Source: Trueperaceae bacterium
GTDB lineage: Bacteria; Deinococcota; Deinococci; Deinococcales; Trueperaceae
Assembly: GCA_965215565.1 (NCBI GenBank)
Contig: CBDCDZ010000004.1
Location: 1,536,001 to 1,600,000, forward strand
Length of the DNA stretch: 64,000 nt
Reading direction: 5' to 3'
Below, piece by piece: positions 597-22,530 of the stretch. The translations under genes and the position numbers were made by a program. The notes beneath the pieces were generated by a model that saw only the letters and a list, made by a program, of their open reading frames with translations, was not told the DNA's origin and ran no database searches. Numbering within the stretch: position 1 is the stretch's first letter; every line of letters begins with the position of its first letter.

Positions 597-858
597 CGTT
601 CCTCTCCTTGTAAACTAAAAAACTTGCATTGGTTTTATAGTTTATAGAGTAGACGATGATCTACTACGTTGTCAAATGGAAAGGATCATAATATGCCTTT
701 TCTAAGCTTTGTCTCTCCGAAGAAGCGACGATGAGCCTATTCAACTCAGCAATGAAAGGGATGGGCACGCCGGGGTCTTGTGCGAGAGATGCGCGCGTTT
801 GCTGCACAAAACTCTCTAGGGCAGCCCCTTCGGTTCAAACACTATTTAACGGTGTACG

Positions 859-1989: not shown

Positions 1990-2017
1990 CTTTATCTCCT
2001 TTTCCAACGAAGTGTGT

Positions 2018-2317: not shown

Positions 2318-2862
2318 ACCGCGAGCTGCGCCGCGTCCCCGGCGAAGTAGGCGAGGACGAGTTCGGTGTTTCTCTCTACCCCGAGCTTCTCGCGGGCATG
2401 CCTGAGGTGCTCACCTGCCGTATAGGGGATGATACCTAAGGATTCGGCTAACATCTCGACGCTCTCCCCGTACACCGTGCGGCGCAGCACCTCGCGTTCT
2501 CTCGGAGTGAGCGGGCTCTTGGCCGGTGGTGGTCCTTCGTAGAAATGCTCGCCGATAGCAACGCGGGAGAGGTAGAAGGCTAGGGCTCGAGCTGGTGGCA
2601 GGCTCGAGGTGACCAACAACCCCTGCGGCTTCAGATCGAGTAAATCTAACAAGTAGTGGATGGAGCGGTTGGCAGTCACGAGGAGCACGGGCAGAGGTAG
2701 CCCAAGTGCGCTCAATACCTTTAGGGCGTAGCCGGGGCGGTCATCGAGTACTAAGCTCACCGGCACGTCGAAGTCGAGCGTGCTCAGACGCTCGGCAACC
2801 GCATCCTTCATGCGCCCCGAAGCGGCGTGGATACTCAGATGACTCTGAAGCTGAGTTGACAC
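2314..2862 (-). CDS. LuxR/NarL-family HTH regulator with degenerate receiver-like N-terminus
   Basis: LTPREREVL...LAESLGI...H.R.KLGV LuxR motif; GGAGG SD. Confidence 0.8.
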   Translation of the reverse strand: MSTQLQSHLSIHAASGRMKDAVAERLSTLDFDVPVSLVLDDRPGYALKVLSALGLPLPVLLVTANRSIHYLLDLLDLKPQGLLVTSSLPPARALAFYLSRVAIGEHFYEGPPPAKSPLTPREREVLRRTVYGESVEMLAESLGIIPYTAGEHLRHAREKLGVERNTELVLAYFAGDAAQLAV

Positions 2863-2888
2863 AAGCTCCTCCCCCTTAATGTGCCGCG

Positions 2889-3701
2889 TTAGGGTGCCCC
2901 ACCACTGACCCCGATGCCTATAGGTGTCTGCGGCAGGTCCAACGTCTCGGTCGTCGTGAGGAGCATCTCTCCACCCGCTAAACTGGCTGCGCCCGAGACC
3001 TCGAGCAGATTGAGCCCCGCTTGTAAGTCCAGGTCGGTCGTCACCTGCGACCCCTCGCCCGAACAGTAGCCGCTGCCTGCGACCCGGAAGGGCTCAAGTG
3101 CGTAGAGAAGCCCGAGTAAGGTGCGCAACTCGTAGTCGAAGAGCCCGCCCTGCTCGGCGGTGAGGTCTACGATGCCCCAGAACTGCCCATCGGCATAGAG
3201 GGCGAGTTTGAGCAGAACCATCTGGGCACCCGGTGGTGATAGGGAGGGGGCGACCTCGGGGCAGAGTTGGAAGTCGTCCAAACTCGCCTCCTGGTAGAAG
3301 CGCCTGGCGCCCCTCGGTAGCTCTTCGAGCAAGCGGTAGGTCACTTCGCCTATCTCGCTCACCGGGAAGCTGAACACGGTCGTGAGGTTCTCCTCGCTAT
3401 AGTCCTCCGAGGTGACGTCCGCTACGGCGACGGCGTGCACCTCTCCCTCAGCGCCCGAGGGCCAGCCCTCAGGCGGCCACGGGGTCAAGCGGGTGGTTAG
3501 CTCGAGTTGGGCATAAGTGATAGGCGACACTGCCAACAAACATATGAAACTTAGTAGGGCAAGTTTTGAAACAGTACAACGATCCGCCCAAGTTTTTTCA
3601 CGCCTCTCCCTATACGAGCAACTACTAGAAACGCCGAATAACACAATTGACCCCTCTTCTGCAGTACGTGGTGCACGACAAGAAAATTTCTTACGAGTCA
3701 T
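2889..3701 (-). CDS. Hypothetical secreted protein (true start probably downstream of 3701)
   Basis: Internal signal-peptide-like segment KLALLSFICLLAVSPITYAQ. Confidence 0.55.
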   Translation of the reverse strand: MTRKKFSCRAPRTAEEGSIVLFGVSSSCSYRERREKTWADRCTVSKLALLSFICLLAVSPITYAQLELTTRLTPWPPEGWPSGAEGEVHAVAVADVTSEDYSEENLTTVFSFPVSEIGEVTYRLLEELPRGARRFYQEASLDDFQLCPEVAPSLSPPGAQMVLLKLALYADGQFWGIVDLTAEQGGLFDYELRTLLGLLYALEPFRVAGSGYCSGEGSQVTTDLDLQAGLNLLEVSGAASLAGGEMLLTTTETLDLPQTPIGIGVSGGAP

Positions 3702-3778
3702 ACCCTAGCATAATTCTCATTAGTATGAGACCCTTACAATGAGTCGCATGTGACGAACTGAGAACGAATGATGATAAT

Positions 3779-4042
3779 GTGTTCAGACCCGATAGTGAGG
3801 AGCTTTCACGTGCTGCGTTCGCCTATAGGAAGCGTGTCGGCAAACACCTCATGAGGCTGCGTAAGCAGAAAGGGTTGAACCAAGACGAATTTGCTTTCAA
3901 CGCAGGGCTTCATCGCTCCCATGTCGGTAAGATTGAGAACGCTACTCTGAACGTCACCCTCGAGTCGCTCTACAAGTACGCGCACGGGCTCGAGATGGAT
4001 GTCTGGGAGATGTTGCGAATCGTCAGCGAGGATGAATTTTAA
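3779..4042 (+). CDS. XRE-family HTH regulator (R-M controller-protein-like)
   Basis: LRKQKGLNQDEFAFNAGLHRSHVGKIEN...NVTLESL HTH_3 pattern, upstream of hsdM. Confidence 0.85.
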   Translation: MFRPDSEELSRAAFAYRKRVGKHLMRLRKQKGLNQDEFAFNAGLHRSHVGKIENATLNVTLESLYKYAHGLEMDVWEMLRIVSEDEF

Positions 4043-4534
4043 TCCACCTCAGAGACGCATTAGCACCCCTCAAAATGCATGACGTTACAAGGGTAACTAC
4101 GCCGATTTGGGAAAGGCTTCGGAAGAAGAGAAGAGGGCTGAGATAGTGTGTGAGCAAGATTCCAACCCTTGAAAAGATTGTACAAGCGGCTAAAGGTCTA
4201 AGTCTAAGAAAGCAGAGGAAAGCTCTACAAGAATGCAAACCCATGTTTTCAAACAGCTTTATCATCACCTTGGTGGTGTACTAGAAGTTGGCGGGCTTTT
4301 GCTACCTACGCCTAGAAGATGTTGGAAGTCGCGGTATTCTTCGGCGTCACTGTTCCTGCACCTTCAACCTACCCAAGATTACGATATTCACCGCTTTTAA
4401 GAATATTTTAGCGGTACTTTGGCTCCGCATTTATGGCGCTGAGTCATCAATTCTCAGCGCTTCATCTTGCGGGCGCGAGGTTAAGCTGAAAGCACATAAT
4501 TTCAGCCGCCGAAAGGACGCACCTAGACCTCGAT

Positions 4535-7215
4535 ATGACGACCCAACGCGATAAACTCACGCTCGCCCAACTCGAGACCTTCCTCCTCCAAGCCGCCGAC
4601 ATCCTGCGCGGCAAGATGGACGCCAACGACTTCAAAGAGTACATCTTCGGGATGCTCTTCTTGAAGCGCATCCCGACCAGTTCGCTGCCAAGCAGGAAGA
4701 GATGAGGCAAGTTTACAGCCATCTTTCCGAAGAGCTAGTGGACGAACTGCTGACGGAGAAGACAACCTACGGCGAGGCGTTCTTTGTTCCAGAAGAGGCT
4801 CGCTGGAATAGGATCAGAGATTTTCAGCACAATATCGGTGAGCAGTTGAACGTCGCCGTTTCTGCCCTTGAAGAGGCTAACGACACGTTTGAGGGTGTTC
4901 TCAAAGACAAGATCAACTTCAACGCGGCGAGTGGCGGCAAGCGTCTCGTGTCAGACGGACGGCTCAAAGACCTCATCAACCACTTCAATACCATCGTTCT
5001 CACTAACGGCAACTTCGAGTTCCCCGACCTCTTGGGCGCAGCCTACGAGTACCTCATCAAGTTCTTCGCTGACAGCGCTGGTAAAAAGGGCGGCGAGTTC
5101 TACACGCCTGCCGAAGTGGTTCGCCTTATGGTGCAACTCGTCAAGCCCAAACAAGATATGTCCGTGTACGATCCGACCATTGGCTCGGGAGGAATGCTCA
5201 TCCAGTCGGCGCAGTACGTCGAGGAGCAGGGGGAAGACCCTATCAAGCTGAACCTCTTCGGGCAAGAATCCAACCCGGCGACCTGGGCGATCAGCGTGAT
5301 GAACATGATTTTGCACAACCTCGCCTCCGCGAGCATCGAGTACGGCGACACGTTAGAGGAACCCCTACACGTTAGGGACGGGCGTCTGCGGCAGTTCGAC
5401 CGCGTTCTAGCCAACCCACCCTTCTCCCAAAACTACACCCGCGCCAACATGGACTTCACCAACTGCTTCCCCTACGGCTTCGCGCCGGAGACGGGCAAGA
5501 AAGCCGACCTCATGTTCGTCCAGCACATGATCGCCAGCCTCAAGGACACCGGCGTCATGGCGACGGTCATGCCGCACGGCGTGCTCTTTCGGGGCGGCAA
5601 AGAGAAGCAGATTCGCGAGGGGTTCGTCAAAGCGGGCATCGTCGAGGCGATTATCAGCCTACCCCCCTCGCTCTTCTACGGCACGGGCATCCCTGCCTGC
5701 ATTCTCGTCATCAACAAGAACAAGCCCGACGGCTTGCGCAACAAGGTGCTCTTCATCAACGCCGACGCAGAGTACGCCGAGGGCAAGAAGCAGAACAAGC
5801 TGCGCCCCGAGGACATCGAGAAGATCGACTGGGTCTACACCCACAAGCACGAAGCGCCCAAATACTCGCGCCTGGTAGACATAGAAGAGATCAGAGACAA
5901 CGACTACAACCTCAACATCTGCCGCTACGTGGACAACACCCCGCCCCCCGAACCCGAGGACGTGCGGGCGCACCTGGTCGGCGGCGTACCTAAACAAGAG
6001 GTGCAAGCGCAGCAGAAACAGCTCGACAAATTCGACATTATGCCCCTGCTCGTCTTCCAGGAGCGCGACGCCGAGTATTACGACTTTCGGGACGAGATCG
6101 GGAGCCGTGACGACCTCAAGCGCATCATCGAAGAGGACCAGAACGTCAGGGCGACCTACCGCCGCATGATCGAGCGGCTCGAAGGTTGGTGGGTAAAAGC
6201 CCGCGACACCTTCGCCCGCCTCGCCCCGCCGAACGGCGCGGACTACCCACAAGCTAAGCTCCCCGACGTTCGCGCCGACCTGCTCGCCTCACTCAAGGCG
6301 ACGCTACAAGAAGAGCGCGTGCTCGACGACTTCCAGGCGGGCGGCGTCTTCGCCAACTGGTGGGACGCCATCAAGTACGACCTCAAAACTATCGTAGCGA
6401 ACGGTTGGCACCATACCCTCATCCCGGACGAATACCTGATACGCGCCTTTTTTCAAGCCGACCAGGACGCGCTCGACATCCTCGCTAACACGCTCAGTGA
6501 CCAAGAGGCGCAGCTCGACGAGGCGGTGCAAGAGGTAGAATACGAGCCCGAGGAAGACGAGAAGGTCACACCCGCCGTGGTCAAGAACCACCTGACCAGC
6601 GAGATCAAGTCCCTCAAAGAGGACGGCGGTCCGCTGCTTTCCGGGGCGGAAGATGAGTTAGCAGGTTACGAGGCGCAGCTTGGGGCGATTAAGGATGCAG
6701 AAGGCGCGATCAAGAAGACCAAAGCCAAGATCAAAGAGCGTGAGGTGCAGCTCGCTGAGAAGCTGCTGCTGAAGCGCTACGGGGTAGAAGAGGTCACGGC
6801 GGACCTGAATGCTCGGCTCAGGCAGGTGCAAAAAGAGGTCGAGGCGTGGGAGGCGAAGCCGGGCGGTGATGCGAAAGAGGAGAAAGCGCGGAAGAGTGAG
6901 GTGAATAAGCTGGGTAAAGATGTGAAGGCGCTTGAGGGGCAGAGGGAGCGGGCGGAAGGGTTGTTTGGGCAGGTTGGGGGGGTGCTTACGGAGGAGGAAG
7001 CGAAGAATCTCATTCTGCAAAAACACCACGACCTTGTTAGAAGCACGCTTGAACGCTATATGGATCAAGAAAGGCGCATTCTACTCAGTAGTTTCAACAA
7101 CCTGAATGAGAAATACTCTACTTCAGCCTATGAATTAGAGGCTGATCGAGAGGACACAATGACTCAGCTTCAGGTAATCATGAAACAGCTAAATTATACC
7201 GAGGCGGTAGCGTGA
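4535..7215 (+). pseudogene. hsdM: Type I R-M methyltransferase subunit, 1-nt frameshift near 4673
   Basis: N-terminus [46 protein letters not shown] starts at 4535 in a different frame from the 4702 ORF, which carries GEFYTP, DPTIGSGG and NPPF motifs. Confidence 0.85.
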
Positions 7216-8549
7216 GAGGTTGGAAAAGGCAAAAGATAGGGCAGTTATTCGAGTACACAATTCCAGGAGATTGGGGCGGAACTCCTTCTACGAATAGCTC
7301 TGTGCCCGTAGTTCGTTCGACTAACTTTAGGAACGATGGCAGGCTAGATTTGAGCGACATCGTGTACAGAAGTGTTAGTCCCAAAAGCCTGAGTGTGCGT
7401 GAAGTAAATCAAGGAGACGTGCTCATTGAAAAATCAGGAGGTAGCCCAAACCAGCCCGCAGGTAGAGTTGTTTTCTGCGATCAAGAGTTTGGAGGCACGT
7501 GTTCCAACTTTATAGAAGTTGCCAAGATCAAACAAGGTTTCGACAACAGGTTTATTTTCTACCTCTTGTATTTCCTTTACCAGACAGGTCTCGTACTTAA
7601 ATACCAGCAGCAAACAACTGGGATAATTAACTTTAAGCTCAATCAGTACATGGATGAGTTTGTGGAAGTGCCTGGTTCAAAACAAGAGCAAAAAGAGATA
7701 GCTGATGTATTAACAAATATAGACACCGCCATCACTCAAACCGAGGCGCTTATCGCCAAGTACCAGCGTGTCCGCACCGGGCTCATGCAGGACTTGCTGA
7801 CGAAAGGCGTTGACAAAGAGGGGCGCATCCGCTCCGAGGAGACGCACGAGTTTAAGGACTCGCCGCTGGGGAGGATTCCGGTGGAGTGGGATATGGCATC
7901 TATAGCTGATACTGCTAGCAAAAGCCAGGGCTCAACTTCAATTGGACCATTCGGTAGCGATTTACTTGCTAGCGACTATAGGGACCAAGGAGTTCCGGTC
8001 GTTTTTGTTCGAGATATTAAAAGCGATGGTTTCATTTGGAAAAGCGAAGTATACCTGGATCAAGAAAAAGCGGAGAAGCTCGCTGCACACTCCGTACTTC
8101 CGGGTGATGTAATCGCCACAAAAATGGGATTACCGCCCTGTATCTCATGCGTTTACCCGTTAAATATGCCTCCCGGCATCATTACCGCTGATGTAATTCG
8201 ACTTCGTCCAAACTTGGAGATAGCCAATGCTGAATGGCTTGCTCAGTATCTAAATTTTACACCCGTGCGGAATCAGGTTAAAGCAATTACAGGAGGTGTG
8301 ACGCGACCAAAGGTTACGCTTAGAGACTTCAGAAATTTACTCATTGCTCTTCCTAGAATTAGCGAGCAATCTCAAATCCTAAGTATTTTGCGCAAAAATC
8401 AGCAACGAGTTGAGTGCGAAGAGGAGTACGTAAGTAAGCTTAATCATCTGAAAAGTGGTCTCATGCAAGACCTCTTAACAGGTAAAGTTTCCGTTGACGC
8501 GCTTCTTAACCAAACTGAGTCTCAAACACCGGAGGTTGTCGCCTCATGA
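7212..8549 (+). CDS. hsdS: Type I R-M specificity subunit
   Basis: Two AT-rich TRDs with conserved EQ..IA..L / GLMQDLLT repeats, between hsdM and hsdR. Confidence 0.92.
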   Translation: MRGWKRQKIGQLFEYTIPGDWGGTPSTNSSVPVVRSTNFRNDGRLDLSDIVYRSVSPKSLSVREVNQGDVLIEKSGGSPNQPAGRVVFCDQEFGGTCSNFIEVAKIKQGFDNRFIFYLLYFLYQTGLVLKYQQQTTGIINFKLNQYMDEFVEVPGSKQEQKEIADVLTNIDTAITQTEALIAKYQRVRTGLMQDLLTKGVDKEGRIRSEETHEFKDSPLGRIPVEWDMASIADTASKSQGSTSIGPFGSDLLASDYRDQGVPVVFVRDIKSDGFIWKSEVYLDQEKAEKLAAHSVLPGDVIATKMGLPPCISCVYPLNMPPGIITADVIRLRPNLEIANAEWLAQYLNFTPVRNQVKAITGGVTRPKVTLRDFRNLLIALPRISEQSQILSILRKNQQRVECEEEYVSKLNHLKSGLMQDLLTGKVSVDALLNQTESQTPEVVAS

Positions 8550-11500
8550 TCAAGCCGGATAAGAAGGTCACGCCTAAGCGTCAGAGTGAGCGGCGGAGCG
8601 TTGAGTTGCCGCTGCTAGAGCAGCTCAGGGGCTTGGGCTGGGAGGTGCTGGACCTGGAGATGAAGCAGGAGCCCGCCGACTCGTACCGGGAGAGCTTCAC
8701 GCAGGTCATCCTGGAGCCTCGGCTGCGCGAGGCGCTGCTGCGTATCAATCCTTGGTTGGAGAGCAGTCAGATTACGGAGTTGGTGCGGCGCATCACGCCC
8801 ACGACGGGGAGCCTCTTCGAGAACAACCAGCATATTTTAGACCTGCTCTTAGACGGCACGCCGCTGGACAAGAACCACCAGACGGGCGACCAGAGCCCGA
8901 CGGCTCGCTACGTGGACTTCGACCACATCGAGAACAACGACTTCTTAGCGGTCTGTCAGTTCAAGGTGCGTATCCTCGGCACGGAGAAGCACATCATCCC
9001 GGATGTGGTGTGCTTTTTGAACGGGTTGCCTATCGCCGTCATCGAGTGCAAGTCGCCCAAAGCGCAAGACCCGATTCCCGAAGCGATTGACCAGATGCTG
9101 CGCTACAGCGAACAGCGCGATGAGGGGAGCGAGGGCAACAAGACGCTCTTCTACTACAACCAGTTTTTAGTCGCCACTTGCCGTAACGAGGCGAAGTTTG
9201 GCACGATCAGCAGCCGCAGCGCCAAGCACTACTTCCGCTGGGCTGACCCCTACCCGCGCGAGCTTGACGACATCCGCGAGGGGCAGGCGAGCCCGAACGA
9301 CCAGTTGCGTCTCGTGGCGGGGATGTTTGACCGCCGTAACCTCTTGGACCTCATCCGCGTCTTCACCCTCTTCGTGGAGGATGATAAGGGTAAGCGCATC
9401 AAGGTCGTGGGGCGTTACCAGCAGTTTAGAGCGGTCAAGAAGGCGGCGCGGCGGCTTTTAGATGGCAATAACAAACTACAGCGCGGCGGCATCATCTGGC
9501 ATACGCAGGGCTCCGGCAAGTCGCTCACGATGGTCTTTTTGGTGCGGGAGATGTACCTGCAAGACACGCTCAAGAGTTGGAAGGTCGTCTTCGTCACGGA
9601 CCGGACGCAGCTTCAGGACCAGCTCACGAGTACGACCAAAGCCATCGGCAAGACGGTGCAGGTGGCGGACAGCATCAACAAGCTCAAGGCGCTGTTGCCC
9701 ACCGACTCCTCGGACCTCGTGATGGCGATGATCCATAAGTTTCAGGAGCGGGAGTTGAAGACGAGCGTCTTTGAAGAGATGAACCCAAGTACGAACATCC
9801 TCGTGCTGACGGACGAGGCGCACCGCTCGCAGTACAGCTTGCTGGCGGGGAATCTGAACCGAGCACTGCCCAACGCCACGGAGATCGGCTTTACGGGCAC
9901 GCCCATCGACAAAACCGAGCAGAAGTACGGCGACTACATCGATAAGTACACCATGCGGCAGTCTATCGAGGACGGGGTGACGCTCGAGATCGTCTACGAA
10001 GGACGCACCAACAACGCCGAAGTGGACGATCAAGGCAAAGCGAACGAGTTGTTTGAGGATGTGTTCAGCGAGTACGACTTGGGCGAGCGGCTGCAAGTGT
10101 TGGGCTACGGTGGCAAAGACGCTTTCTTGGAGGCGCAAGAGGTCATCAACGCGAAAGCGCTCGACATGGTCAGGCACTACGCCGAGCATGTGTTTCCCAA
10201 CGGCTTTAAGGCGCAGGTGGTGGCGACCTCTCGCGAAGCCGCGCACCGCTACGGGCTAGCGCTCAAAGACGCCCTCTCAAGAGTCCACGCCGAACTGGAG
10301 CAGAATAACCCGCTCAACGTCGATCTGAAGAGGTTACAGCAACTTGAGGTCGCGGTGGTCATTTCTGGCGGCAGTCATAACGACAAGCCTTATCTCAAGA
10401 AGCACGCCGACGCTACGAGCACAGGAAGGACATCGCCGGCTTCAAGCTCGCCTTCGGCAGCGAAAACGAGGACGGTGTAGAGGGTAACGTCGGTTTTCTC
10501 GTCGTGAACAACATGCTACTAACTGGGTTCGACGCGCCCATCGAGCAGGTCATGTATCTGGACAAGGTCAGCGTGGCGCACAACTTGCTACAAGCTATCG
10601 CCCGCGTGAACCGCGTCGGACCGGATGGGAAGGACAAGGGCTTTGTGGTGGATTATGTGGGCGTCGGTCATCACCTGAAACGAGCCCTAGATGACTATCA
10701 TGAGCGCGAGCAGAAGGAGATTCTCGAGTCGCTGAGCGACCCAGCGCAGGAGTTAGAAGACCTCAGACAGGCGCGTGATGCGGTCTGGGCACTCCTGGAG
10801 CGGTCGGGCGTCCACGACCTGCACGACTACGACGCCTTCTATGACCTCTTCTACGACGAGGAGACGCGCTTCGAGTACATCTTGGCGTTCCGTAAGTTCA
10901 CTAAGGCGTTCAACCTCGTGCTCCCCCGCAAGGAGGCGCTCGACTACCTGGAGGAGTATCTGCAATTCGCCGAGATCAACGTCAAGGCGATGCAGCACCT
11001 GCGCGACAGCCGCCTCAGCATGAAAGGTATCCCCGAGAAGCTGCGCAAGATTACTGACGCCCACCTCAAATCTCAGGACATCGAGCAGAAGGTCGCGCCC
11101 ATTTCAATTATGGATGACGATTTCTTACAGCATGTCGGTAAGAAAAAGCGCACCAAAACCAAAGCCGCCGAGATCGAGCACGGCATCCGGCACCATATCG
11201 ACACGCACCTTGACGAGGACCCTGAACTCTACGCCTCGTTTGCCGAAGCGCTCCAGGAGATCATCAAGACTTTTAAGGACAACTGGCAGAAGATTTACGA
11301 GGAATTGGAAAAGCTCCGGCAACGCATGAAGAACGCGGCGAAAGAGCCAACCTATGGTCTGCACCGCAAGAAGCAGATGCCCCTCTTTCGCATTTTGCAT
11401 AAGGAGATTTACGATGACCAGCCACTAGACAGCGACAACATCTCGTCGCTCGTACCCCTCACGCAGGAGATCACACTCATCTTGGAACGTGAATTGCAGC

Positions 11501-11679
11501 TCTCAGGCTTCTGGGACAACGTGATCGCCCGCAACAGGCTTAAGGGCGAACTTCAGAAAACCCTTCTCTCACCTGAAAACGCTAAACTACCTAATGTGGT
11601 CAAGAAGCGTAACGAGGTCATCACGCGGGTCATGGAGGTGGCGGAGCGCAACCACGACGCCATCCTCTACGCGGCGTAG
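8546..11679 (+). pseudogene. hsdR: Type I R-M restriction subunit, frameshift near 10412
   Basis: IECK nuclease motif, HTQGSGKS, DEAH, GFTGTP. The second frame continues EHRKDIAGFK...VVNNMLLTGFDAP...QAIARVNR. Confidence 0.88.
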
Positions 11680-11685
11680 GTCGCT

Positions 11686-12366
11686 ATGAAACTTAACTAC
11701 AGCGTCGTCTACTCTGACCGCCGGAAGACGGTGGGCATCACCGTCGAGCGTGACCGTTCAGTCGTGGTGCGAGCCCCCCGCCGCGCCACGGCGGACCAGA
11801 TCGAGCGCGTGGTGCAGCAGAAGAAGCTGTGGATTTATGAAAAGCTACGCCATCCGCAGAAGTATAACCTCGCCGAAGCGAAGCCTAAAGAGTTCGTTTC
11901 TGGCGAGTCTATCCTCTACTTGGGGCGCAACTACCGCCTGGAGATCGTCGATGACGACTTTGCAGGCGTGCGCTTCGAGAACGGCTTTTGCCTATCGCGA
12001 CAGTCTCAGCCGGACGCGCAAGTGTTCTTGGAGGCGTGGTTCAAGGAGCGGGCGGCGGAGAAGATCACGCCTCTAGTGCGAGAGGTCGCAGAGAATTTAG
12101 GGGTAGCCTATAACCGCATCATGATCTCTGACTTGCAGTACCGCTGGGGCTCGTGTACGCCTAATGACAACCTCAACTTCAACTGGCGGCTGATCCGAGC
12201 CCCGATGTTTGTTATTAGGTACGTCGTCGCGCACGAGCTGACGCATCTTTTAGAGCCAAACCACACACCTCGGTTCTGGAACATCGTTCATGTACAGGTG
12301 CCGCGCTACGCTAGGGCTAAAGCGTGGCTGAAAGCGCATGGACTGACATTATACAAAGGGGTCTAG
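11686..12366 (+). CDS. YgjP/M48-like metallopeptidase (DUF45), typical hsdR neighbour
   Basis: RWGSC...LNFNW...YVVAHELTHL..NH motif. Confidence 0.88.
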   Translation: MKLNYSVVYSDRRKTVGITVERDRSVVVRAPRRATADQIERVVQQKKLWIYEKLRHPQKYNLAEAKPKEFVSGESILYLGRNYRLEIVDDDFAGVRFENGFCLSRQSQPDAQVFLEAWFKERAAEKITPLVREVAENLGVAYNRIMISDLQYRWGSCTPNDNLNFNWRLIRAPMFVIRYVVAHELTHLLEPNHTPRFWNIVHVQVPRYARAKAWLKAHGLTLYKGV

Positions 12367-12885: not shown

Positions 12886-13575
12886 GTGATGGCATTGGCG
12901 GAGCCAGTTCGGAAAATTGATTCTAGTTGGGTGACGACCACCGCGCTGATACGCTGTTGCGGCAGATCGGTGTGGACGGAAGGTCCTACAGCCATGAGGT
13001 TTGTGGAAACTCTCCGTATGCACTCTTATGTTCGGAATGTTGTTGAGGAACCTTGTCAGATAACGTACAAAGATGGCGCTGGAAAGACTCGCCGTTACAC
13101 TCCCGATTTCCTCGTCGTATACGAATTGCCGGAGGAATATAGCTACTCCTCCACTGTCCTCTATGAGATTAAGTGGTCTGGCGACTTACGTGAGAACTAC
13201 GAAAAATACGAGGAACGCTTTGCGGCGGCATATAAGTATGCCGCTGAGCGTGGCTGGCGCTTTCGTGTAATTACCGAGAAGCGCATAGACCGTTATCATC
13301 GCTCCGCCACGCTTTTACATCGCTTCCTGCGCCGCAAACTCGAATACGAACACGTGAGATACGTTCTCGATACTGTCACGTTAGAGCCGGGCATCACAGC
13401 TCACGATTTTCTAGATGCGGAGTTGAGCCCCGTCGATCCCTTTAACTTGCTTACGACTATCTGGACGTTACTCGCGCGTGAGCAGATCAGCGCGGAGTTA
13501 GAGGGCGGCATAACAAATCGGACACCCTTATTCCCGGCTCGCGCCGGAAATCCTTGGGCTAGACCTGTCCTATGA
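12886..13575 (+). CDS. tnsA: TnsA endonuclease
   Basis: PVRKI N-terminus, EEP..I.Y...RRYTPDFLV, YEIK, A...GWRFRVITE. Confidence 0.9.
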   Translation: MMALAEPVRKIDSSWVTTTALIRCCGRSVWTEGPTAMRFVETLRMHSYVRNVVEEPCQITYKDGAGKTRRYTPDFLVVYELPEEYSYSSTVLYEIKWSGDLRENYEKYEERFAAAYKYAAERGWRFRVITEKRIDRYHRSATLLHRFLRRKLEYEHVRYVLDTVTLEPGITAHDFLDAELSPVDPFNLLTTIWTLLAREQISAELEGGITNRTPLFPARAGNPWARPVL

Positions 13576-14437
13576 GCCGTTTAAGACTGTTGGCGCGCAC
13601 CAAAGTGTCTTACGCAGGCTATGACTGGGAGATCGTAACAGTAGATAACAGACAGAAGCTTACATCTCTAAAGCGCGAAAATGGAATCACTTGCCTCGCG
13701 CCGACTTCGGAACTCGGTTCACCTGGTCGACATAAAATACCTGTTCCAAGCGAATACGAAGCGCTGCCTGAAAACATAAAGAATCTTTACGGTGATCTAG
13801 TAGCCTTAGACCGAACCGCAAAGGACAAGGAGCGCTTAGCCAAAAAAAACAGCTGTAGTAGGTCCACCGTCTACCGCCAACTCGAGAAGGCAAGAAGAGG
13901 TCCTGAAGAACTCAAGCGGAAACGGCGTGCGGACTTCGGAAACTCCAGCTTCGAGACGAGAGTCAAAGATATTATTGAGGCCGAAGTCAAAAGGGCACCT
14001 GCGTTTAGGAGCAACAGGGAAATCGCCAAACGTGCATTGAACGAGATGCACAAGCCGGACAAGGACGACAAGTACATAGAGAAAATTCCGAGCAAGTCGA
14101 CAGTACTTCGGTATGTGAGTCGGGAGCGCGGCAAGGTGCCTTACGATCCTTCCAAAGACGCACCCCATGTCAAACCGATACACCCCTTTGATGAACTCGA
14201 GATGGATTCGACTCAGGCAGATACCTATGTCGTATATGACGACTATAAGGAGGGTCGCCCCTGGCTTACATCAGTCGTTGAGGTTCTAACCGGTCTGCGG
14301 TGGATACTTGTCACGCGCGAAGAACCTAGCTCGCGTATAACAGGGTTGCTTATCATCATGGTCGTATTCGGTTTGGACCTCCCGCACGTTAAAAACAAAC
14401 CTCCGAACGGTTTATTTGAAAAGCTGTTGGTAGTGGC

Positions 14438-14933
14438 TCACCTCAGACTGCCAACCTTAACCTCCAGGTTGTAGCTAACGAGGAACATATGCAGGCAGAT
14501 CAGGCAGATAAGGTGCATGTGCTGGGCTTTAGAGAAGGACAAGGTCTTTCTGACAAAGCGGGCGAGGCGCTGACGAATTGTGTTGTTGAAACGTTCAACG
14601 TGAGCCGTAAGTCCAGTTTCTTTGCCGACAGCCTGATGTTGCTCGTCGGGGATAACAGCTTGATAAGCTTCCCAAAAGTCACTGAAGACGAGACCTTTTT
14701 TGTAGGCGTTAGGTACGTTGCCCCAAAGCTTCTTGCACGTAGCGCTACCGCGTCCTCCTATGACGCAAGCAACGACTTGCCTGGTCTGTTTGCAAAGAGC
14801 CAGCCATATCCAGAGCTTTTTAGCTTTGCAGCTTACAAACGACCACATTTCGTCGAGTTCAAGCTCTACAGCTCCAGGTACTTTAGGAGCTATGAGTGTA
14901 TCGCTAAGGGGAGGCGTTATCTTGGCTTTTTTT
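14438..14933 (-). CDS. insB: IS1 InsB catalytic part, expressed via -1 frameshift
   Basis: ELDEMWSFV, SDFWEAY, HVERFNNTIRQRL..F.RKTLSFSK. Confidence 0.88.
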
Positions 14934-15179
14934 GAGCCAGGCGTCCAGTGTGTTACGTGATATCCCAAACGTTCTAGCGACACCGCGCATACTAGAGCGC
15001 TCTTGATAAGCTTTAAGAATCTCTTCCTTTCTCTCTTTACTGTAGCCGTAATTTGGGTTCTCTAAACTCGCTCGGTTGCATTCCTTACAGTGGTAGCGCT
15101 GTTTGCCATTAGGGGCTTTGCCGTTCTTCTTTACGTTCTCGCTGCCGCAGTGATAACACTGTACTGTCTGAGTAACCAT
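14904..15179 (-). CDS. insA: IS1 InsA (zinc ribbon plus HTH)
   Basis: CYHCGS...KNGK...GKQRYHCKEC; ends at an A7 slippery run (14927-14933). Confidence 0.9.
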   Translation of the reverse strand: MVTQTVQCYHCGSENVKKNGKAPNGKQRYHCKECNRASLENPNYGYSKERKEEILKAYQERSSMRGVARTFGISRNTLDAWLKKSQDNASP

Positions 15180-16084
15180 CCCTTAGCTTAGCAGTTCGTG
15201 TTGAGCCACTACCAAGCTGTTCACAGATAGCGGCAAAGCGCTGAAAAACCTGAGTACAGAATCGCTGAATGAGAAGCATGATCTAACACTAAAATACCGT
15301 CCAAAGGGAAAATCCTGGTATGGCGGCACGGTAGAGACACTGTTCAATAACGACAGCGAATTCGTGAAAGAGTTTATGGGAGCTGTGGTCGATAGCGACG
15401 GCAGCGGTCGCAAGCGGAAATCAGGCAAAGCTGAGTACACCTTTGAGGAGTATAAGCGCTTGGTAGAGGGATACACTTACGATCATCTCAATATGACTCC
15501 TCGGACCGGCGAGGAGTTGTCTCCACTCGACAAGTTTTATGTGCTCCTTGTAGACCCTCCCGGCGGGGCAGGCTTAGGTAGCCTCGACCAGGTTCCGAAA
15601 GAGGAACACCAGCAGTTCAAACTCGACTGTATGCCGTTCATCACGAGAACAGTATCAAAGGATGGCGTTCGAGATGATTACACTATCTATAAGAGCGGTG
15701 CGCAAAGACGACTTATCGGCAAAAAGGTGGTTGCACGCTATGACCCGTCGGGCTATACCGATGTTATGCATGTCTGGGACGAGGAGAGCGCAGCCTATAT
15801 CGAATTTAGACCGAACTACGAAAGTCTTCCCAAGATGACACGGAAGGATCGCAAACGGGTTGTCAAAACTTTGAATAAGCTAGGTGTTGAACCTAGCATG
15901 GAAAGCATTGCTGAGAAGTATCGTGAGCTTGTAGAACAGGAGGCAGTCGAAGCCACGCAGCGAGCACCCGCCGAACTCACTTCTACTGAGGACGACACTC
16001 CCCACCCCCGCCATATTCGGGCATACGAGCTAGAAGACGACCTCGGCGACGAGATGCCCTACATTAGCCACAGGGACGGCTGAG

Positions 16085-17053
16085 ATGCGTAGGTCTGCTC
16101 TCGCAACTCACTACCTGGATGCACCTCTCGAGAAACGTATCGAACTTGTGGAGAACCATCCCTTCGTCGGCTGGCCTGCTGCTCACGACTTCTTTAAGCG
16201 AATAGATAGGATGCTTCTTGCTCGCCGGAAACGGTACCAAAAGCACCCAAATATGCACCTATACGGAAGAGCACACCACGGTAAAACAGAATGCTTGCGT
16301 GAGCTCCAGAAGCGTTATCCAAGAGGCGAGTTTAAGGGCGGATACGAACAGAGACCCGTCGTGTACCTACAGGCGGAGAGTGGAGACCGACCCGAAGACC
16401 TGTACAAGCGTTTGCTGGAGGAACTGAACCTGATGCTAGCCGCAACGACCAAAGATGAGGTTAGGAAACAGCTTATGGTACTCGTTCCCGCAATGGGCGT
16501 GAGGGTGCTGGCGGTCGATGAAATGCAAGATTTGGATGCAGGCGAAGGAAGCCGGTTCAAGCCAGTGATCAATCACCTCAAGGCGAGGAGCAACGACCTC
16601 GGGTTAGTTGTTGTTACAGCAGGGGTCGAGGGCTCGAGCGACGTCGTGCGGAATTCGGATCAACTGAAGAGTAGGTTCAAAGAGTTTAAACTACCTACCT
16701 GGCAGGTAAGAAAATTGTCGGACGAGACCAAGAAAAAGATGCCCGAAAAAGAGCTAGAGGAGATCAAAGGAGAGATTAGGGGGTATAGGCTATGGCTTAG
16801 AGGTATGGAATCGCATATGCCCTTGCCAGAGGCATCGAAGCTCGAAGATTTGTGGGAAAGCATTATCTTCCTAGCCGAATTCATGAGTCAGAACAGTAGT
16901 AAGACCCCTAAAGAATTTAAAGAGAAGCCGAAGCGCGGAGCACCGATAGGCTACGTCCGCGACCTCATTGTGGGTGCGTGTGTTCTGGCAATGGAGCAGG
17001 ACTGCTCAAAAATCATTCCAGATCACCTAGAAACCGTGGCGAGCAAATGGTAA
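16085..17053 (+). CDS. tnsC: TnsC/TniB AAA+ ATPase
   Basis: Walker A GRAHHGKT, Walker B LAVDEMQ, QLKSRF arginine finger; directly follows tnsB. Confidence 0.92.
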   Translation: MRRSALATHYLDAPLEKRIELVENHPFVGWPAAHDFFKRIDRMLLARRKRYQKHPNMHLYGRAHHGKTECLRELQKRYPRGEFKGGYEQRPVVYLQAESGDRPEDLYKRLLEELNLMLAATTKDEVRKQLMVLVPAMGVRVLAVDEMQDLDAGEGSRFKPVINHLKARSNDLGLVVVTAGVEGSSDVVRNSDQLKSRFKEFKLPTWQVRKLSDETKKKMPEKELEEIKGEIRGYRLWLRGMESHMPLPEASKLEDLWESIIFLAEFMSQNSSKTPKEFKEKPKRGAPIGYVRDLIVGACVLAMEQDCSKIIPDHLETVASKW

Positions 17054-18744
17054 CTTTCGATCTCCGTAAGGATGGCTGGATACCTGTGCTAGACGGCGAC
17101 ACTTGGCGGCTCGTCGGTATACGCGAAGCTTTCGCAAAAGGCGACGAACTACAGCTTGCCTGTGCAGACCCATTGGAAGAGGTCGTTATCGTCAGGCTGC
17201 TCGGGGAAGTCGTGAGAGGAGCCGCTGGGGGATGCGTAACCGAAGCCTCGCCCAGCTACGAAAGGATAAGCCGCTACCTCACACGCTATCCGCTCTACTT
17301 CATTCACCCTACGCATCCCTTCTACCAGATATGGGACCTTACGTGCAATACAAGCTGGATAACGCTCCATCCTTCCAAGAACAGTATGGACACGCGGGTC
17401 GTCCACGACCATAGTCGCGTCGACAGGCCCCCTCCCCTCACGGAAGACGAGGCGGTGAGACTCCACCTGCAGGCTCAATCGTTCGCGCCGACCGCCTTAC
17501 GCAGGGGAGGCTATGGCTACACAGTCAATGGGCCGCTCCTTAATCTCGTTGTGACACACGTTCTAGGTCCTAACCTTACAAGCACGATATTTGCAAATTC
17601 ACCGCGGTGAGAACGCGAGGTTAAACCCATATGGCGAACGAAGATAAACACGATTGCGTCTGTTCTCGCCGCCCGCGACAACAAAGTTGTGTTGAGCCCA
17701 TACACGCCTCTCACACGGATGCTTCGTTTCGAGCAAGATGGCTACACGTTCAAAATCGGGCACGCGCACGGGCTTCGCCCTAACCGCTTAAATGACCCGA
17801 TGCTCTCATTCACTGAGCGGGGCAAACCTCTACCTTGGAAGGCGTGCCACGATAGCCTCGCTTACCTGCAAAGAGTCCACCGCATTGGTGGCGTAACTCC
17901 ACTCGTAACATCGCGGGCGAGGCAAGCCGTTGAGAACCCCAACGACTATCGTGTTGCCGTCACCTACATGGTCGCCGATAAAGCTAAGCCTGTGACAGTG
18001 AAGAGGTTTACCCTTCCTCTGGTAGTCCCAACAGGCGAGTTCGCGAACAGAGTTTGTGATTCTTTAGAGGTAGCGCTCAAGGATTTGAAGAGGCGTTTGC
18101 GGTACTTAGGTATACGTGAAGAACAAATCGAAGACGCAAGCCGGACTCTAAGGACGCGCCTAGCCGACACATTACCCCAGCATTTAAGATCAGGAAGCGA
18201 GGCGTTGTGGAAGGAGGAAGTGAGGACAACTATGACCGAGGTTGAGCAGCATATCAATGTTCTAGCATGGCCCAAACCTCAACCAGCAAAGCGACGAGAG
18301 CCAAGTTCACGCGATGAAAGCTTCATTCGATGGTTGACTGTATTGTCCCAACCCGAACGCAGGGCGTTTAAGACTTTACCCGAGTCGCCGCGCTACCCGA
18401 CTTACCGATTTAGGCGTTTTCTGTACGAGAGAGATGGCCCTGAAGTCTTGCGCGCCTTTTCACTCGTCGCGCACTTGTACGCGAACAATGGCGGCTCCGG
18501 CGACATGCCACTCGCCGAGCGACTCGCGACGGACGCCTTAGATATTCCGCTCGCGCATCTCTCAGCAGCCGACACCTGGGAGGTTCTCTCCAGCATCTTA
18601 CGTAGCACTATAGGCGACCTCAAAGAACCGCCCGACTGGGTATATCTCCTCTACGACCTGAGGCGCTGGAATGGCCCAACAGGTCAAGTCGTAAAAGCAT
18701 GGAAATCAGATTATAAGCGTACGTTTCAGAGGAGGCACGCATGA
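17047..18744 (+). pseudogene. cas8e: Cas8e (Cse1/CasA) fused to Cas11 (Cse2/CasB), with in-frame TGA at 17608-17610
   Basis: MVTFDLRKDGWIPV start, HPFYQ, GPNL..TI.AN. The two track ORFs share one frame. The C-terminus has a Cse2-like PDW..LLYDLRRW...VVKAWKSDY. Confidence 0.82.
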
Positions 18745-19850
18745 GAGTCGAGATTCATACTCTGAGGATGTTGGGGCCAAGCTCTGTCAATAATGGGAAA
18801 GACAGACTGCCCAAACACTGCACCTACGGTGGGGTTCGGCGCACTCGCGTAAGTGCGGAGGCGCAGAGGCACGTGATCAGACAAGCGTTCAGAAAGTCGC
18901 TGGAGAGTTCCGCACCGTCCACGCGGATGCTTCTCGGCGAGCTTAGAGGCGCGCTTAAAGCTCGCAAGGAGTTACAACCGCCTAACGGGGTGCGGATCGA
19001 CCTTCTGGCCAGGAAGACGCTCGCGTTTCTCAAGCTAGAGGCCGACGAACACGGAGTGAGCAGGGTCCAGGTGAGATATGCTGAGGGAGCGTTCGCCCGG
19101 CTCGCCGAGGTCGTAGCGACCCACCGAGAGACCATCTTAACCAAGGAGAAAGTCACAAAGAGGCTGGAATGGGAGCTAGCAAACGCCCTTTTCGGTCCGA
19201 CGAATACCGAACTTCACGTGTTTGGCCGTTACCTCGCCGCCTTCCCGGATGTCGAAATCTTCTTATGTCTCGATGTCGCTAGCGCAGTATGCGTCAGCGC
19301 TTCGCCTCTGGAGGAAAACTTCTTCTCCTCAATCGATGACATTGCGAGTAAAGACCCTAACTCGCCCTACGGCATTGCTCACACCAACACCAACTACTTC
19401 AGCTCGCCAAATTTCTACGGATTCACTTCTATCGACTTGGCGCAACTCTGCGCGAACCACGGCAAGGAGGGTGTCGAACAGATCGTTAAGACACTCATCG
19501 ACCTTGTCGTCTATCAGTTTCCCAAAGCTAAGCATACGTCGTCAGCACCGTACGCGGTTCCTTACCTCGTGACGCTTGCAGCGGGTGAGGGGGCATGTTC
19601 GCATTCGGCATTGCAGGCGTTCGACGAGCCAGTAAGGTCCAGTGGGGGTATTAGAAAGCGGGCAGTGAAACGCTTCCATGAGCACTGGGAACGAAGCCAC
19701 AGCACATTCGCGCCCGCTCGCTATGCGACGCTCGCCACTGCGAGCTTAATCGACATACCCGAAAACAGTGTTCTTAACCCAATGTCTTATAACAACGCGA
19801 AAGAGGAGGTGATGGCGTGGACAACCCAATCGCTTACACGCTGCTCCTAG
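18741..19850 (+). CDS. cas7e: Type I-E Cas7 (Cse4/CasC), divergent
   Basis: VEIH.L...PSSVN...PK...YGGVRRTRVS, FGR.LA, FFSSIDD, F.S..FY.F..IDL.QL. Confidence 0.9.
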   Translation: MRVEIHTLRMLGPSSVNNGKDRLPKHCTYGGVRRTRVSAEAQRHVIRQAFRKSLESSAPSTRMLLGELRGALKARKELQPPNGVRIDLLARKTLAFLKLEADEHGVSRVQVRYAEGAFARLAEVVATHRETILTKEKVTKRLEWELANALFGPTNTELHVFGRYLAAFPDVEIFLCLDVASAVCVSASPLEENFFSSIDDIASKDPNSPYGIAHTNTNYFSSPNFYGFTSIDLAQLCANHGKEGVEQIVKTLIDLVVYQFPKAKHTSSAPYAVPYLVTLAAGEGACSHSALQAFDEPVRSSGGIRKRAVKRFHEHWERSHSTFAPARYATLATASLIDIPENSVLNPMSYNNAKEEVMAWTTQSLTRCS

Positions 19851-20449
19851 TCCTATCTGGCCCAATGCAGTCGTGGGGCGGGCGCACCTACACCGAGCGG
19901 ACAACCAACCTCACTCCAACTAAAAGCGGTGTCGTCGGGCTCATAGCCGCAGTACTAGGACGACGTCGAGATGAGGATATAAGTGACCTCGCCACTTTAA
20001 GAATGGGCGTACGCGTGGACCGGGCAGGGCTCCTCGAGACGGAATTCATCACCGGCCAAAATATCATCTCGGCGGACGGCACGAAGGTCCATGCCAGCTC
20101 GTCAACCGTAAAGCACTACCTAGCGGATGCTGTTTTTCTGGTCGGACTTGAGGGTGCACGGTGGACGCTCGAGTCTATTCGCGAGACGGTTGAGATGCCA
20201 CGCTTCCCTCTTTACCTCGGGCGACGTGGGTACGTTGCAGACAGACCTATTTATCTCAGCGACGGATTTCAACAAACGAACCTCGAGAGTTCGCTTAGAG
20301 AGTACGAACTCGTTGGACCTCGACGAACGGACGCATTTGAGGTCGAAGTTGAGGTAACTTCGGGCGGTGATTTGGTCTTCGACCAACCTATAGGACCTCG
20401 GCGCTTCGGTCCGCGGCGCGTAAAACGGTACAGGCTATGGCGGTTGTGA
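19817..20449 (+). CDS. cas5e: Type I-E Cas5 (CasD)
   Basis: LSGPMQSWG...PTKSGVVGLIAAVLGRRR...HYLADAVF...PLYLGRR. Confidence 0.95.
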   Translation: MDNPIAYTLLLVLSGPMQSWGGRTYTERTTNLTPTKSGVVGLIAAVLGRRRDEDISDLATLRMGVRVDRAGLLETEFITGQNIISADGTKVHASSSTVKHYLADAVFLVGLEGARWTLESIRETVEMPRFPLYLGRRGYVADRPIYLSDGFQQTNLESSLREYELVGPRRTDAFEVEVEVTSGGDLVFDQPIGPRRFGPRRVKRYRLWRL

Positions 20450-21039
20450 TACTGACAGAATTCGATCTCAATCTATCCAATCCCAACGTGAGCCGTGACG
20501 TTTTCGACAGATACAGTGCACATCAAACGATGAAGCGGCTGACGGAAAGTTCTATTGGACGTGCGCTCTGGCTCCTGCGCGCGAGAGAGAGTTCGGCGCG
20601 GCTCGTGGTACAGACCGAAACGCCCATCTCTGAGGAAACTGTCAACGCTCTTATCAAGTCAGGTTACGCTTTGCGGGTACGTCAGCAGGCGCTGATTCTT
20701 GAGTACCCGCGCGATGCTGTGCTTTACTTCTATCTCGAGGCGAACGCGGTGCGCCGTGGAAAGATCGTCCGGCCTGCTATTGAGCGAGAAGAGAGGTTGA
20801 GTTGGCTAGAAGAGAGGCTAAAAGGCGCCGGAACCAAACTCATCGATGTTGAGGTGTTAAGAAGTCACACATGTGACGTTGTTCCAAAGGACTACAAGCT
20901 CTATACGGTAACCTATCACGGTTTGATATGCGTCAAGAACCCAAAGGAGGCTTCAAGGTCGTTGCGCAAAGGCATAGGACGCTCTAAGCACCTCGGATGC
21001 GGTCTGCTTCTTACGAAGGCAGTAGACTTAGGGGTATAA
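20437..21039 (+). CDS. cas6e: Type I-E Cas6 (Cse3/CasE)
   Basis: D.Y..HQ histidine motif and C-terminal GIGRSKHLGCGLL glycine loop. Confidence 0.92.
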   Translation: MAVVILTEFDLNLSNPNVSRDVFDRYSAHQTMKRLTESSIGRALWLLRARESSARLVVQTETPISEETVNALIKSGYALRVRQQALILEYPRDAVLYFYLEANAVRRGKIVRPAIEREERLSWLEERLKGAGTKLIDVEVLRSHTCDVVPKDYKLYTVTYHGLICVKNPKEASRSLRKGIGRSKHLGCGLLLTKAVDLGV

Positions 21040-21066: not shown

Positions 21067-21157
21067 GTTGTTTCCGCACGCGCGGGGGTGAACGGCCCAG
21101 GTTGGCCAGACCGGGATCCAGTCCCAATATATTCCCCGTGCGAGTGGAGACGGAACA
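21067..21157 (+). CRISPR. Type I-E mini-array: repeat 21067-21095, 33-nt spacer 21096-21128, degenerate repeat 21129-21157
   Basis: GTTGTTTCCGCACGCGCGGGGGTGAACGG has the 29-nt I-E layout (5 nt, 6-bp stem, 4-nt loop, 8-nt handle). Second copy is ATATTCCCCGTGCGAGTGGAGACGGAACA. Starts 27 nt after the cas6 stop. Confidence 0.88.
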
Positions 21158-21163
21158 AAAATA

Positions 21164-21922
21164 TCAGCGAGATAAATAATACAACCACTCAAACGCTGTC
21201 AAGCGCCAGTACCGATCTTTTAGATTAAAGCCAAAGCTGTGACCCGCGCTCTGGGATTCGATCATCTTCTGAAGCCTCTTATTATAACGCAAGTTGTCCA
21301 GCAACTGCCTAGACTTAAAATGAATCGTATTGCGAGGCGAAGAGATAACTGCTTCAATAAGAGCGTCGTGAAAGTGGTAAAGGTCATCATCAATCCATCC
21401 GACGGGTTCGGTAGGCGCGTCTGCTAAATCATCACCACAGCAGTAACAGTAGCATTCAGAGTTCCACCGTTGCTCGTGACGGGCGTAGATATCAACTTGA
21501 GCACCACACTCCGCACAATCATCTCGAAGAAGACAGCGATGAATGCTGCACACTTCAACGACATCAACGTACCAAACTTTTCGAAACCACCTGAACTCGA
21601 AACAGCAGAGCGGGCAGAAGCGCGGCGTTTTCCGAATCACTCGCGACGCCGAACCAGAACAACCCAGTTCTCCTACTCGCCTCGGAATCAGGGCGTCCAA
21701 GATGATTGACTCATCGGCCTGAACTCCATCGGCTAGGACGGAATAAAGATTCGACCGCTTTGCTTTGATGATGTCAGGTGCGTTAGAAATACCATAAACC
21801 CTATGAGATTTCTTCAACCGAGCTATGAATCGTTCGACTGAAAGACCGTTGCCGTAACTCAGTCTGGCAAGGTAGGAAGTAAAGGCTTCGCCTTCATCGG
21901 GTTTGTCTCTAAACGCCCACAC
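21164..21922 (-). CDS. tniQ: TniQ target-selector
   Basis: P..GEAFTSYLARLS..NG, RFCPLC...W...C.IH...L.D.C..CG zinc motifs. Confidence 0.92.
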   Translation of the reverse strand: MWAFRDKPDEGEAFTSYLARLSYGNGLSVERFIARLKKSHRVYGISNAPDIIKAKRSNLYSVLADGVQADESIILDALIPRRVGELGCSGSASRVIRKTPRFCPLCCFEFRWFRKVWYVDVVEVCSIHRCLLRDDCAECGAQVDIYARHEQRWNSECYCYCCGDDLADAPTEPVGWIDDDLYHFHDALIEAVISSPRNTIHFKSRQLLDNLRYNKRLQKMIESQSAGHSFGFNLKDRYWRLTAFEWLYYLSR

Positions 21923-21971
21923 TACATATCATGTCATTAGTGTAGACTGCAAAGGTGAGTTTCAAGTACTG

Positions 21972-22017
21972 TTCGCAAATAACTCGATTCAATTCGCAAA
22001 TAGCGTGATTTTTGACA
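21972..22017. repeat. Transposon end with two putative TnsB-binding repeats and terminal TGT/ACA
   Basis: TTCGCAAATAACTCGATT (21972-21989) and TTCGCAAATAGCGTGATT (21993-22010), 15/18 identical, then TTTGACA. The minus strand reads TGTCAAAAATC... Confidence 0.78.
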
Positions 22018-22530
22018 AGAGCCAACCCCAAACGCCAAGAAACCCTCATCGTCGTCGGACTTGACCCCGGCTTAGCCAACTTGGGCCTGGGCGCGATTCG
22101 CGAAACGGGCAAAGAGGTCACGCATTTAGGCAGCACGCTGGTACGTACAAACAGCCGCACGGATCAAGCGGAGCGTTTGGCGGCGATTTACACCGAGATG
22201 ACCGACTTCTTGAAGGCGCATCGCCCCGACGTGCTCGCCATCGAAGGGCAGTATTTTCACCGCCAGCGCGACGTGGCGTTTAAGGTAGGGCAGGCTTTGG
22301 GCGTGTGCCTTTTAGCCGCGCAGCAACAGGGCGTCGAGACCGTTGAGTACGGACCGATGCAGGTCAAGCAGGCGCTCGTGGGCACGGGGCGCGCGAGCAA
22401 GGCCCAGGTGGGCTACATGGTTCGCGCCATGTTAGGTCTCACCCAGACCCCCGAGAGCCACCACGTCGCCGACGCGCTCGCGCTCGCGCTGACGCATCTG
22501 AGCGCGCGGCAACTGCAGTCGCTGGGTTAA
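22012..22530 (+). CDS. ruvC: Holliday junction resolvase RuvC
   Basis: VGLDPGLANLG, LAIEGQYF, EYGPMQVKQALVGTGRASKAQV, DALALALTH. Confidence 0.95.
   Translation: MTRANPKRQETLIVVGLDPGLANLGLGAIRETGKEVTHLGSTLVRTNSRTDQAERLAAIYTEMTDFLKAHRPDVLAIEGQYFHRQRDVAFKVGQALGVCLLAAQQQGVETVEYGPMQVKQALVGTGRASKAQVGYMVRAMLGLTQTPESHHVADALALALTHLSARQLQSLG

Follow-up and report, generated by a model that had tools for sequence, protein, structure and literature searches.

A 33-nt CRISPR spacer in the window (the whole 64,000-nt stretch of DNA analysed here) resembles part of the adjacent host gene ruvC. The locus thereby raises the question, first posed in a sequence-only reading of the DNA, of whether this spacer directs a mobile element to ruvC, and what kind of element would use it. 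From gene content and geometry compared across relatives, we consider it highly probable that the locus holds a TnsABC-TniQ transposon homing by means of a type I-E Cascade and that several genes, ruvC among them, serve as attachment sites.

Composition of the element

The gene set of a Tn7-like CAST, consisting of tnsA, tnsB, tnsC and tniQ, is recognized by Pfam both in the window (Table 1) and in a related element of another genome (G267). With the insertion sequence removed, tnsB is open over 573 codons free of stops and is 24% identical to TnsB of G267. Near-identical copies of the inserted IS1 occur at other places in the genome. Alignment of TnsC displays both the Walker A and the Walker B motif, and TniQ is short, without a TnsD-like tail. 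The Cascade subunits match the type I-E families Cse1, Cse2, CT1975 and PF08798. One in-frame TGA (17608-17610) interrupts the cas8e-cas11 fusion, which, with the stop read as X, can be aligned over its full length with the intact G267 fusion (590 aa) at 28% identity. A gene search of the window found no cas3, cas1 or cas2 in the element, and in the five genomes searched Cas3_HD matches occurred only far from the elements. The same genome carries a canonical I-E system with cas1 at C4:4.34 Mb, 2.8 Mb from the element.

Table 1. Features of the element and its target in window coordinates
Feature	Position	Strand	Basis or remark
Probable cargo: XRE-type HTH, type I restriction-modification genes, YgjP-like peptidase	3779..12366	+	
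tnsA	12886..13575	+	Pfam Tn7_TnsA-like_N, E 8e-19; 31% identity to G267 TnsA
tnsB (DDE transposase), IS1-interrupted	13572..16083	+	Mu-transpos_C
IS1-family insertion, 8-bp duplication	14429..15213	-	NCBIfam IS1 transposase; boundaries mapped
tnsC (TniB-type AAA ATPase)	16085..17053	+	Pfam TniB, E 9e-34
cas8e-cas11 (cse1-cse2) fusion	17047..18744	+	Cse1 and Cse2 matches
cas7 (type I-E), highly diverged	18741..19850	+	PF09344; nearest other representative ~27% identity
cas5	19817..20449	+	PF09704
cas6e	20437..21039	+	PF08798
Type I-E-like repeat, predicted source of crRNA 5' handle	21067..21095	+	Sequence; in register with repeats of three relatives
Putative homing spacer against ruvC	21096..21128	+	24/33 to 22053-22085; shuffle test
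Atypical terminal repeat	21129..21157	+	Diverged, in register with relatives
tniQ, short (252 aa), antisense to cas operon	21164..21922	-	Pfam TniQ, E 3e-11
Transposon end nearest target	21930..22017	-	Terminal TG; in register with G001, G267 and G018 ends
Host ruvC, open frame	22012..22530	+	NCBIfam RuvC above cut-off; 94-95% to same-genus RuvC
Protospacer over codons of RuvC N-terminal GLDPG motif	22053..22085	-	Sequence match
PAM AGG	22086..22088	-	AAG at same site in G001 and G002

The transposon end nearest the target contains two repeated motifs resembling TnsB sites, at 21972-21981 and 21993-22002, and a promoter scan of this end returned matches at chance level. The hairpin of the atypical repeat alone is no stronger than those of shuffled sequences. 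Separately, the two repeats within 21067-21157 are able to base-pair into a single long hairpin (z -4.1), a potential competitor of the local Cas6 hairpins.

Membership of the cargo in the element is uncertain, because the far end was not located. The cargo region belongs to the ~40 kb stretch separating ileS from ruvC, which two genomes of the same genus lack at this place. The restriction-modification cargo (window 4500-11700) looks frameshifted, with the first codons of hsdM out of frame and hsdR present as two ORFs. Upstream of the window, past ileS (L040 8214-14218), lie a stop-broken RloB-like gene, an IS5-type transposase, a patatin-like gene and a 976-aa ORF.

The spacer match to ruvC

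The reported details of the match were reproduced throughout. The spacer agrees with the minus strand of ruvC at 24 of 33 nt, with mismatches at exactly positions 5, 12, 14, 15, 21, 24, 30, 32 and 33 and AGG flanking the protospacer. The encoded peptides read LGLDPGLANL on the spacer side and VGLDPGLANL in the host, and crRNA positions 6, 12, 18, 24 and 30 all five coincide with third codon positions. Six mismatches fall inside GLDPGLANLG, and all are synonymous. Over its first 32 nt the guide likewise matches at 24 positions; only three of the eight mismatches there lie on flipped-out positions, and the one at position 5 falls in the seed.

In a scan of the 4.49 Mb genome, the ruvC site is the top non-self match of the spacer (24, runner-up 23), and with the sixth positions and base 33 excluded it scores 22/27, the next best site reaching 19. 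Taken alone, a score of 24 is not significant and lies within the range of chance genome-wide best hits: the 14 full-length spacers of the canonical arrays in this genome have chance best matches of 21-24, with two of them reaching 24 (a 15th spacer, only 24 nt long, scored 18). It is the position of the match, not its score, that is significant. None of 3000 shuffled spacers reached 24 within 150 nt outside the transposon end, and the observed match lies less than 100 nt outside it on the facing strand, which by position amounts to a chance of ~1e-5.

The sequence-only reading expected spacer matches across the phylum to fall in ruvC, and this is what we found. The guide pattern occurred in 31 of 364 genomes, one of these matches being its own array; 29 of the 30 others were returned as loci and every one of these lies in ruvC, with no match for a reversed control. 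One of the 29 loci comes from an unpublished genome (G327), on which the claim does not depend. The same reading proposed that the spacer had come from the ruvC of another host. The matches do not establish this: the best other ruvC matches at 27/33, no source host was found, and drift after insertion would explain the mismatches equally well as a foreign ruvC. It had also named a better match in a phage or plasmid as evidence against homing to ruvC. No full-length match of this kind was found, as 50,697 phage and 72,556 plasmid records yielded only partial matches of 17-19 nt, and viral contigs contained no exact 26-nt match to the spacer.

These results bear on the possibility that the transposon family is real and the ruvC match a chance look-alike, the element having reached ruvC by some other route. 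The score within the chance range agrees with this, as do the outlying protospacer-to-end distance of the ruvC copy and the missing far end and native ruvC leader (see below). Chance would, however, have to place the best match of the genome so near the transposon end and on the facing strand, restrict six mismatches in a conserved motif to synonymous changes, and yield a pattern that finds ruvC in all fetched loci of the phylum. We regard a chance match as extremely unlikely.

Insertion point and decay of the ruvC copy

In the ruvC copy, 35-36 nt separate the transposon end from the PAM-distal edge of the protospacer. The two same-genus genomes without the element at this place, G001 and G002, have an ileS-ruvC interval of ~1 kb versus ~40 kb in the present genome (G000), and homology to their empty sites begins at 22018 (G002) and 22020 (G001). 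The insertion point is just past the native start codon of ruvC. An in-frame TTG inside the transposon end replaces this start, and the native leader of ruvC is missing in G000. Neither a far end nor a target duplication was detected in G000 with exact and fuzzy scans, a weight matrix derived from the ends and applied to contig C4, and a search with the far end of G267. With IS1 in tnsB, a stop in cas8e-cas11 and no far end found, the G000 copy is decayed, and it is probably no longer autonomous.

We examined all contigs of four other runs. One X3 contig bridges the junction between the end and ruvC, one X4 contig carries the array without changes, and in two further X4 contigs the match starts exactly at 22018. 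An X3 contig of high depth, whose ruvC is diverged, can be aligned across the junction into the end. Judged from the alignment table only, it has 8 additional nucleotides at the junction, which would give a distance of ~44 nt.

Related elements with different target genes

Cas7 was searched for in 364 genomes of the phylum (probably Deinococcota); 109 gave matches, and the top non-self match was G267, whose element is intact and has the identical gene order, with proteins 25-44% identical. A profile built from two TniQ sequences matched 31 of the 364 genomes. Among at least 30 TniQ loci and wider regions fetched, G001 and G018 were found to contain cas genes, a short array, an antisense tniQ and an end. 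The genomes G267, G001 and G018 belong to the same taxonomic family as G000, and the module of array, tniQ and end is common to all.

The host gene next to each of the four elements is matched by the last spacer of that element: ruvC at 24/32, arginase at 30/32, a Dam-family methylase at 29/32 and the PilT/PilU ATPase gene pilT at 26/32. For each of these spacers, none of 3000 shuffles reached the observed score, and on the flanks of the other elements they scored 13-17. The PAM is AGG at ruvC and AAG at the other three. All four arrays have one or two spacers and a diverged final repeat. Homing guides of type I-F3 CASTs display wobble phasing, and the same phase is seen in all four guides here (chance 1 in 81). 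The protospacer-to-end distances are 36, 42, 43 and 44 nt, with the ruvC copy as an outlier, 6-8 nt shorter than the rest; the 44 nt of G018 depend on the chosen end register, which is the one that aligns the four ends. The arginase, dam and pilT insertions are located just past the stop codon, and at dam, homology to the empty G000 allele breaks off precisely at the junction. The guide of G267 matches the arginase of an empty relative, G005, better than that of its own host.

The homing reading is therefore supported by an end lying beside the protospacer at the break in empty-site homology, and by three relatives with the same geometry of spacer, PAM and end. Related elements at unrelated sites had been put forward as an observation that would count against homing. 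Such sites were indeed found, yet they do not refute homing, since the last spacer of each relative matches its own site. Rather, the comparison points to ruvC as one attachment gene of a re-targetable family, with the type of element being the larger finding.

A different explanation makes the Cascade a cargo or a repressor, with the element placed by TniQ or randomly and the self-matching spacer either repressing the neighbouring gene or acquired later from the flank. Cascades without Cas3 can repress genes, the canonical I-E system of G000 with its cas1 could supply spacers in trans, and four different target genes are unusual for homing. However, three of the four guides hit last codons, which are a poor place for repression, and late acquisition would not yield the same strand, PAM orientation and distance of 42-44 nt at three unrelated genes. 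The closer fit of the G267 guide to the G005 arginase agrees with arrival together with the element, and the only TniQ present is the short form without the tail. Altogether, a cargo or repressor role appears very unlikely.

Homing by the transposon's own Cascade being the preferred explanation, G267 provides its most complete example. Both of its ends were found, 48,985 bp apart (a 49 kb element), with 4 identical bp outside each; beyond the 4-bp repeat lies another copy of the near end. Tn7-like elements are reported to duplicate 5 bp of the target, versus 4 bp in G267. In alignment, its TnsC lacks the Walker B acidic pair. G001 has no tnsB, and neither a far end nor a target duplication was found for it; tnsABC of G018 lie on a separate contig with no proven link to its cas module. 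The Cas8e-Cas11 fusion is present in two members. A TniQ tree groups G000, G267 and G001 (support 0.96), and a Cas7 tree groups G000 with G267 (0.86). The TnsC tree does not resolve the latter two as a clade, and Cas7 and TniQ of G018 are not firmly grouped. G018 may represent a separate capture, and these trees do not establish a single origin of the four elements.

The upstream spacers of G001 and G018 had no match in the five genomes searched for each. The first spacer of G267 (L074 9301-9332, minus strand) matches a gene called coaE-like on the basis of its translation only, at 25/32 in G001 and 24/32 in G000, in frame and with a CTG flank; it is possibly a second homing guide from another host. 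G267 also carries a 564-aa tyrosine-recombinase-like gene (L074 16963-18657), transcribed away from tnsA.

Orphan ends and wider distribution

A pattern derived from the ends matched five places in 4 of 128 genomes of the taxonomic family, with no control matches. Two of these are orphan ends lacking cas genes; one adjoins rraA in G000, the other a GNAT-like gene in G002. In each case AAG is found, oriented as expected, at exactly 42 nt, AAG having a base rate of 1.8% per position; the rraA end helped to build the pattern, and only the G002 end was found blind. A degraded copy of the latter is present at the same GNAT-like gene in G000. The rraA locus contains ~9 kb of extra DNA compared with G001 and G002, and a far end was not found there. 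This orphan end (G000 C4:663688-663723, L205) lies 6 nt before the rraA start, and its predicted protospacer is in wobble phase.

No members were detected outside the phylum by scans of genome contigs with TnsC and with a sister Cas7 pair or by two viral scans, all of which used short exact peptide patterns and are insensitive. The single metagenome match was a canonical cas3-linked system and was rejected as a member. Protein searches of metagenome assemblies yielded two Cas8e-Cas11 fusions (82% and 62% to G267), one Cas7 (85%) and one TniQ fragment (53%), all as sequences without context. Around other Tn7-like loci, 24 regions of at most 20 kb were examined, and type I-E cas genes were absent from all of them. 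In G113, canonical-like cas genes lie ~23 kb from tnsC in an adjoining region, and this genome was not counted as a member.

G000 itself holds two more Tn7-like loci, at C4:3020000-3024500 and C4:3709000-3712400; both have long TniQ frames, and the 20 kb retrieved contains no cas genes. At two loci, L156 (G163:C418) 219-4888 and L159 (G155:C136) 1748-6322, tniQ is directly followed by cas5, cas8c (Csd1) and cas7. Judging by this gene order, both would be CAST-like loci of type I-C, and they come from a different taxonomic family within the same order.

Comparison with known systems

The closest parallel is the type I-F3 CAST (Tn6677-like). The two share TnsABC with one TniQ, a Cascade without Cas3, Cas1 and Cas2, a very short array, a leader-distal homing spacer with an atypical repeat, and a fixed distance from protospacer to insertion (bioRxiv 2021.08.16.456562, PMC11300857, PMC8649781). 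Unlike I-F3, the present family has a type I-E Cascade (Cse1, Cse2, CasC, Cas5, Cas6e) rather than Cas8f/5f, Cas7f and Cas6f, its tniQ is antisense at the element end, its TnsC is TniB-type, and its targets vary from element to element. The distance is 36-44 nt, compared with about 50-60 in I-F3.

The telomeric Streptomyces I-E CAST (I-E5) also combines a transposon with a type I-E Cascade from which cas1 and cas2 are missing. It is a one-ended TnsBC transposon without TniQ, with an active Cas3 and no protospacer beside the end (bioRxiv 2024.11.13.623437, PMC12669027). The present family differs on these points: TnsA and TniQ are present, Cas3 is absent, G267 has two ends, and a protospacer lies next to the end. 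Type I-B, I-C and I-D Tn7-like CASTs are likewise independent captures of type I effectors by Tn7-like elements, with other CRISPR subtypes; I-B and I-D mostly home by TnsD, which is absent here. An atypical I-B system is described with tniQ between the end and a short array and with a self-targeting spacer (bioRxiv 2021.08.16.456562), and the I-D report gives insertion 75 +/- 6 bp from the PAM (PMC9881144), versus 68-76 here. The Rpn-associated type I-E Cascade, a putative non-Tn7 CAST, similarly lies near a putative transposase (bioRxiv 2021.08.16.456562); unlike the present family, it lacks TnsABC and TniQ. A canonical type I-E defence system differs in having cas3, cas1, cas2 and a multi-spacer array.

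The 2025 classification (PMC12669027) lists I-F, I-B, I-D, I-C and IV-A as Tn7-like CASTs and has I-E5, TniQ-less and Cas3-bearing, as its sole I-E CAST. A 2024 review names I-E among Tn7-like captures and cites three papers. The term 'I-E' does not occur in the main text of Faure 2023; the I-E system of the Rybarski preprint is Rpn-associated and non-Tn7; and the I-E mention of Faure 2019 probably refers to the Streptomyces system. Full-text literature searches found no I-E CAST bearing TnsA and TniQ and no term for a Cas8e-Cas11 fusion, though supplements, subscription reviews and patents could hold an earlier mention. Nor did they return ruvC as a Tn7-like attachment site, in line with the earlier suggestion that this site is unreported. 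The family most likely works like an I-F3 CAST while belonging to neither I-F3 nor I-E5, and would constitute a new Tn7-like CAST subtype.

Proposed mechanism and implications

The sequences show the gene set and, in four elements, a minimal array, a last spacer that is followed by an atypical repeat and matches the neighbouring gene, an A[AG]G PAM and a near-fixed distance to the end; the junctions are exact at two sites. We propose that a Tn7-like family with TnsA, TnsB, TnsC and a short TniQ took up a type I-E Cascade whose cas3, cas1 and cas2 were lost. By analogy with known type I CASTs, Cas6e would release the crRNA, and the Cas3-less Cascade would open an R-loop at the host gene and leave the DNA uncut. 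At the PAM-distal end, TniQ would then recruit or load TnsC, and TnsAB would insert the element with its tniQ end facing the target. A contact between TniQ and Cascade is presumed in this scheme; in I-F3, TniQ contacts Cas6 and Cas7 (PMC11656645).

The four guides are in wobble phase and cover conserved coding motifs close to one end of a gene; at ruvC this is the catalytic motif encoded at the 5' end. A guide of this kind allows the site to survive synonymous change and leaves the gene intact. How CASTs acquire and retain homing guides is called unclear in the same source, a 2024 review (PMC11656645). For the present family we lean towards frequent replacement of the homing guide (ruvC, arginase, dam, pilT, probably rraA and the GNAT gene, and possibly coaE), plausibly through the host I-E Cas1-Cas2, with selection keeping wobble-phase guides near gene ends in what would be an undescribed I-E CAST subtype with a Cas8e-Cas11 fusion.

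If this is true, the family represents an independent capture of CRISPR by Tn7-like transposons, by way of type I-E, the best-studied Cascade. The complete 49-kb member in G267 offers a direct route to testing programmable insertion. Several homing genes within one small family form a natural series on how CASTs gain and keep their guides, and the origin of homing spacers in CASTs would thereby become directly testable.
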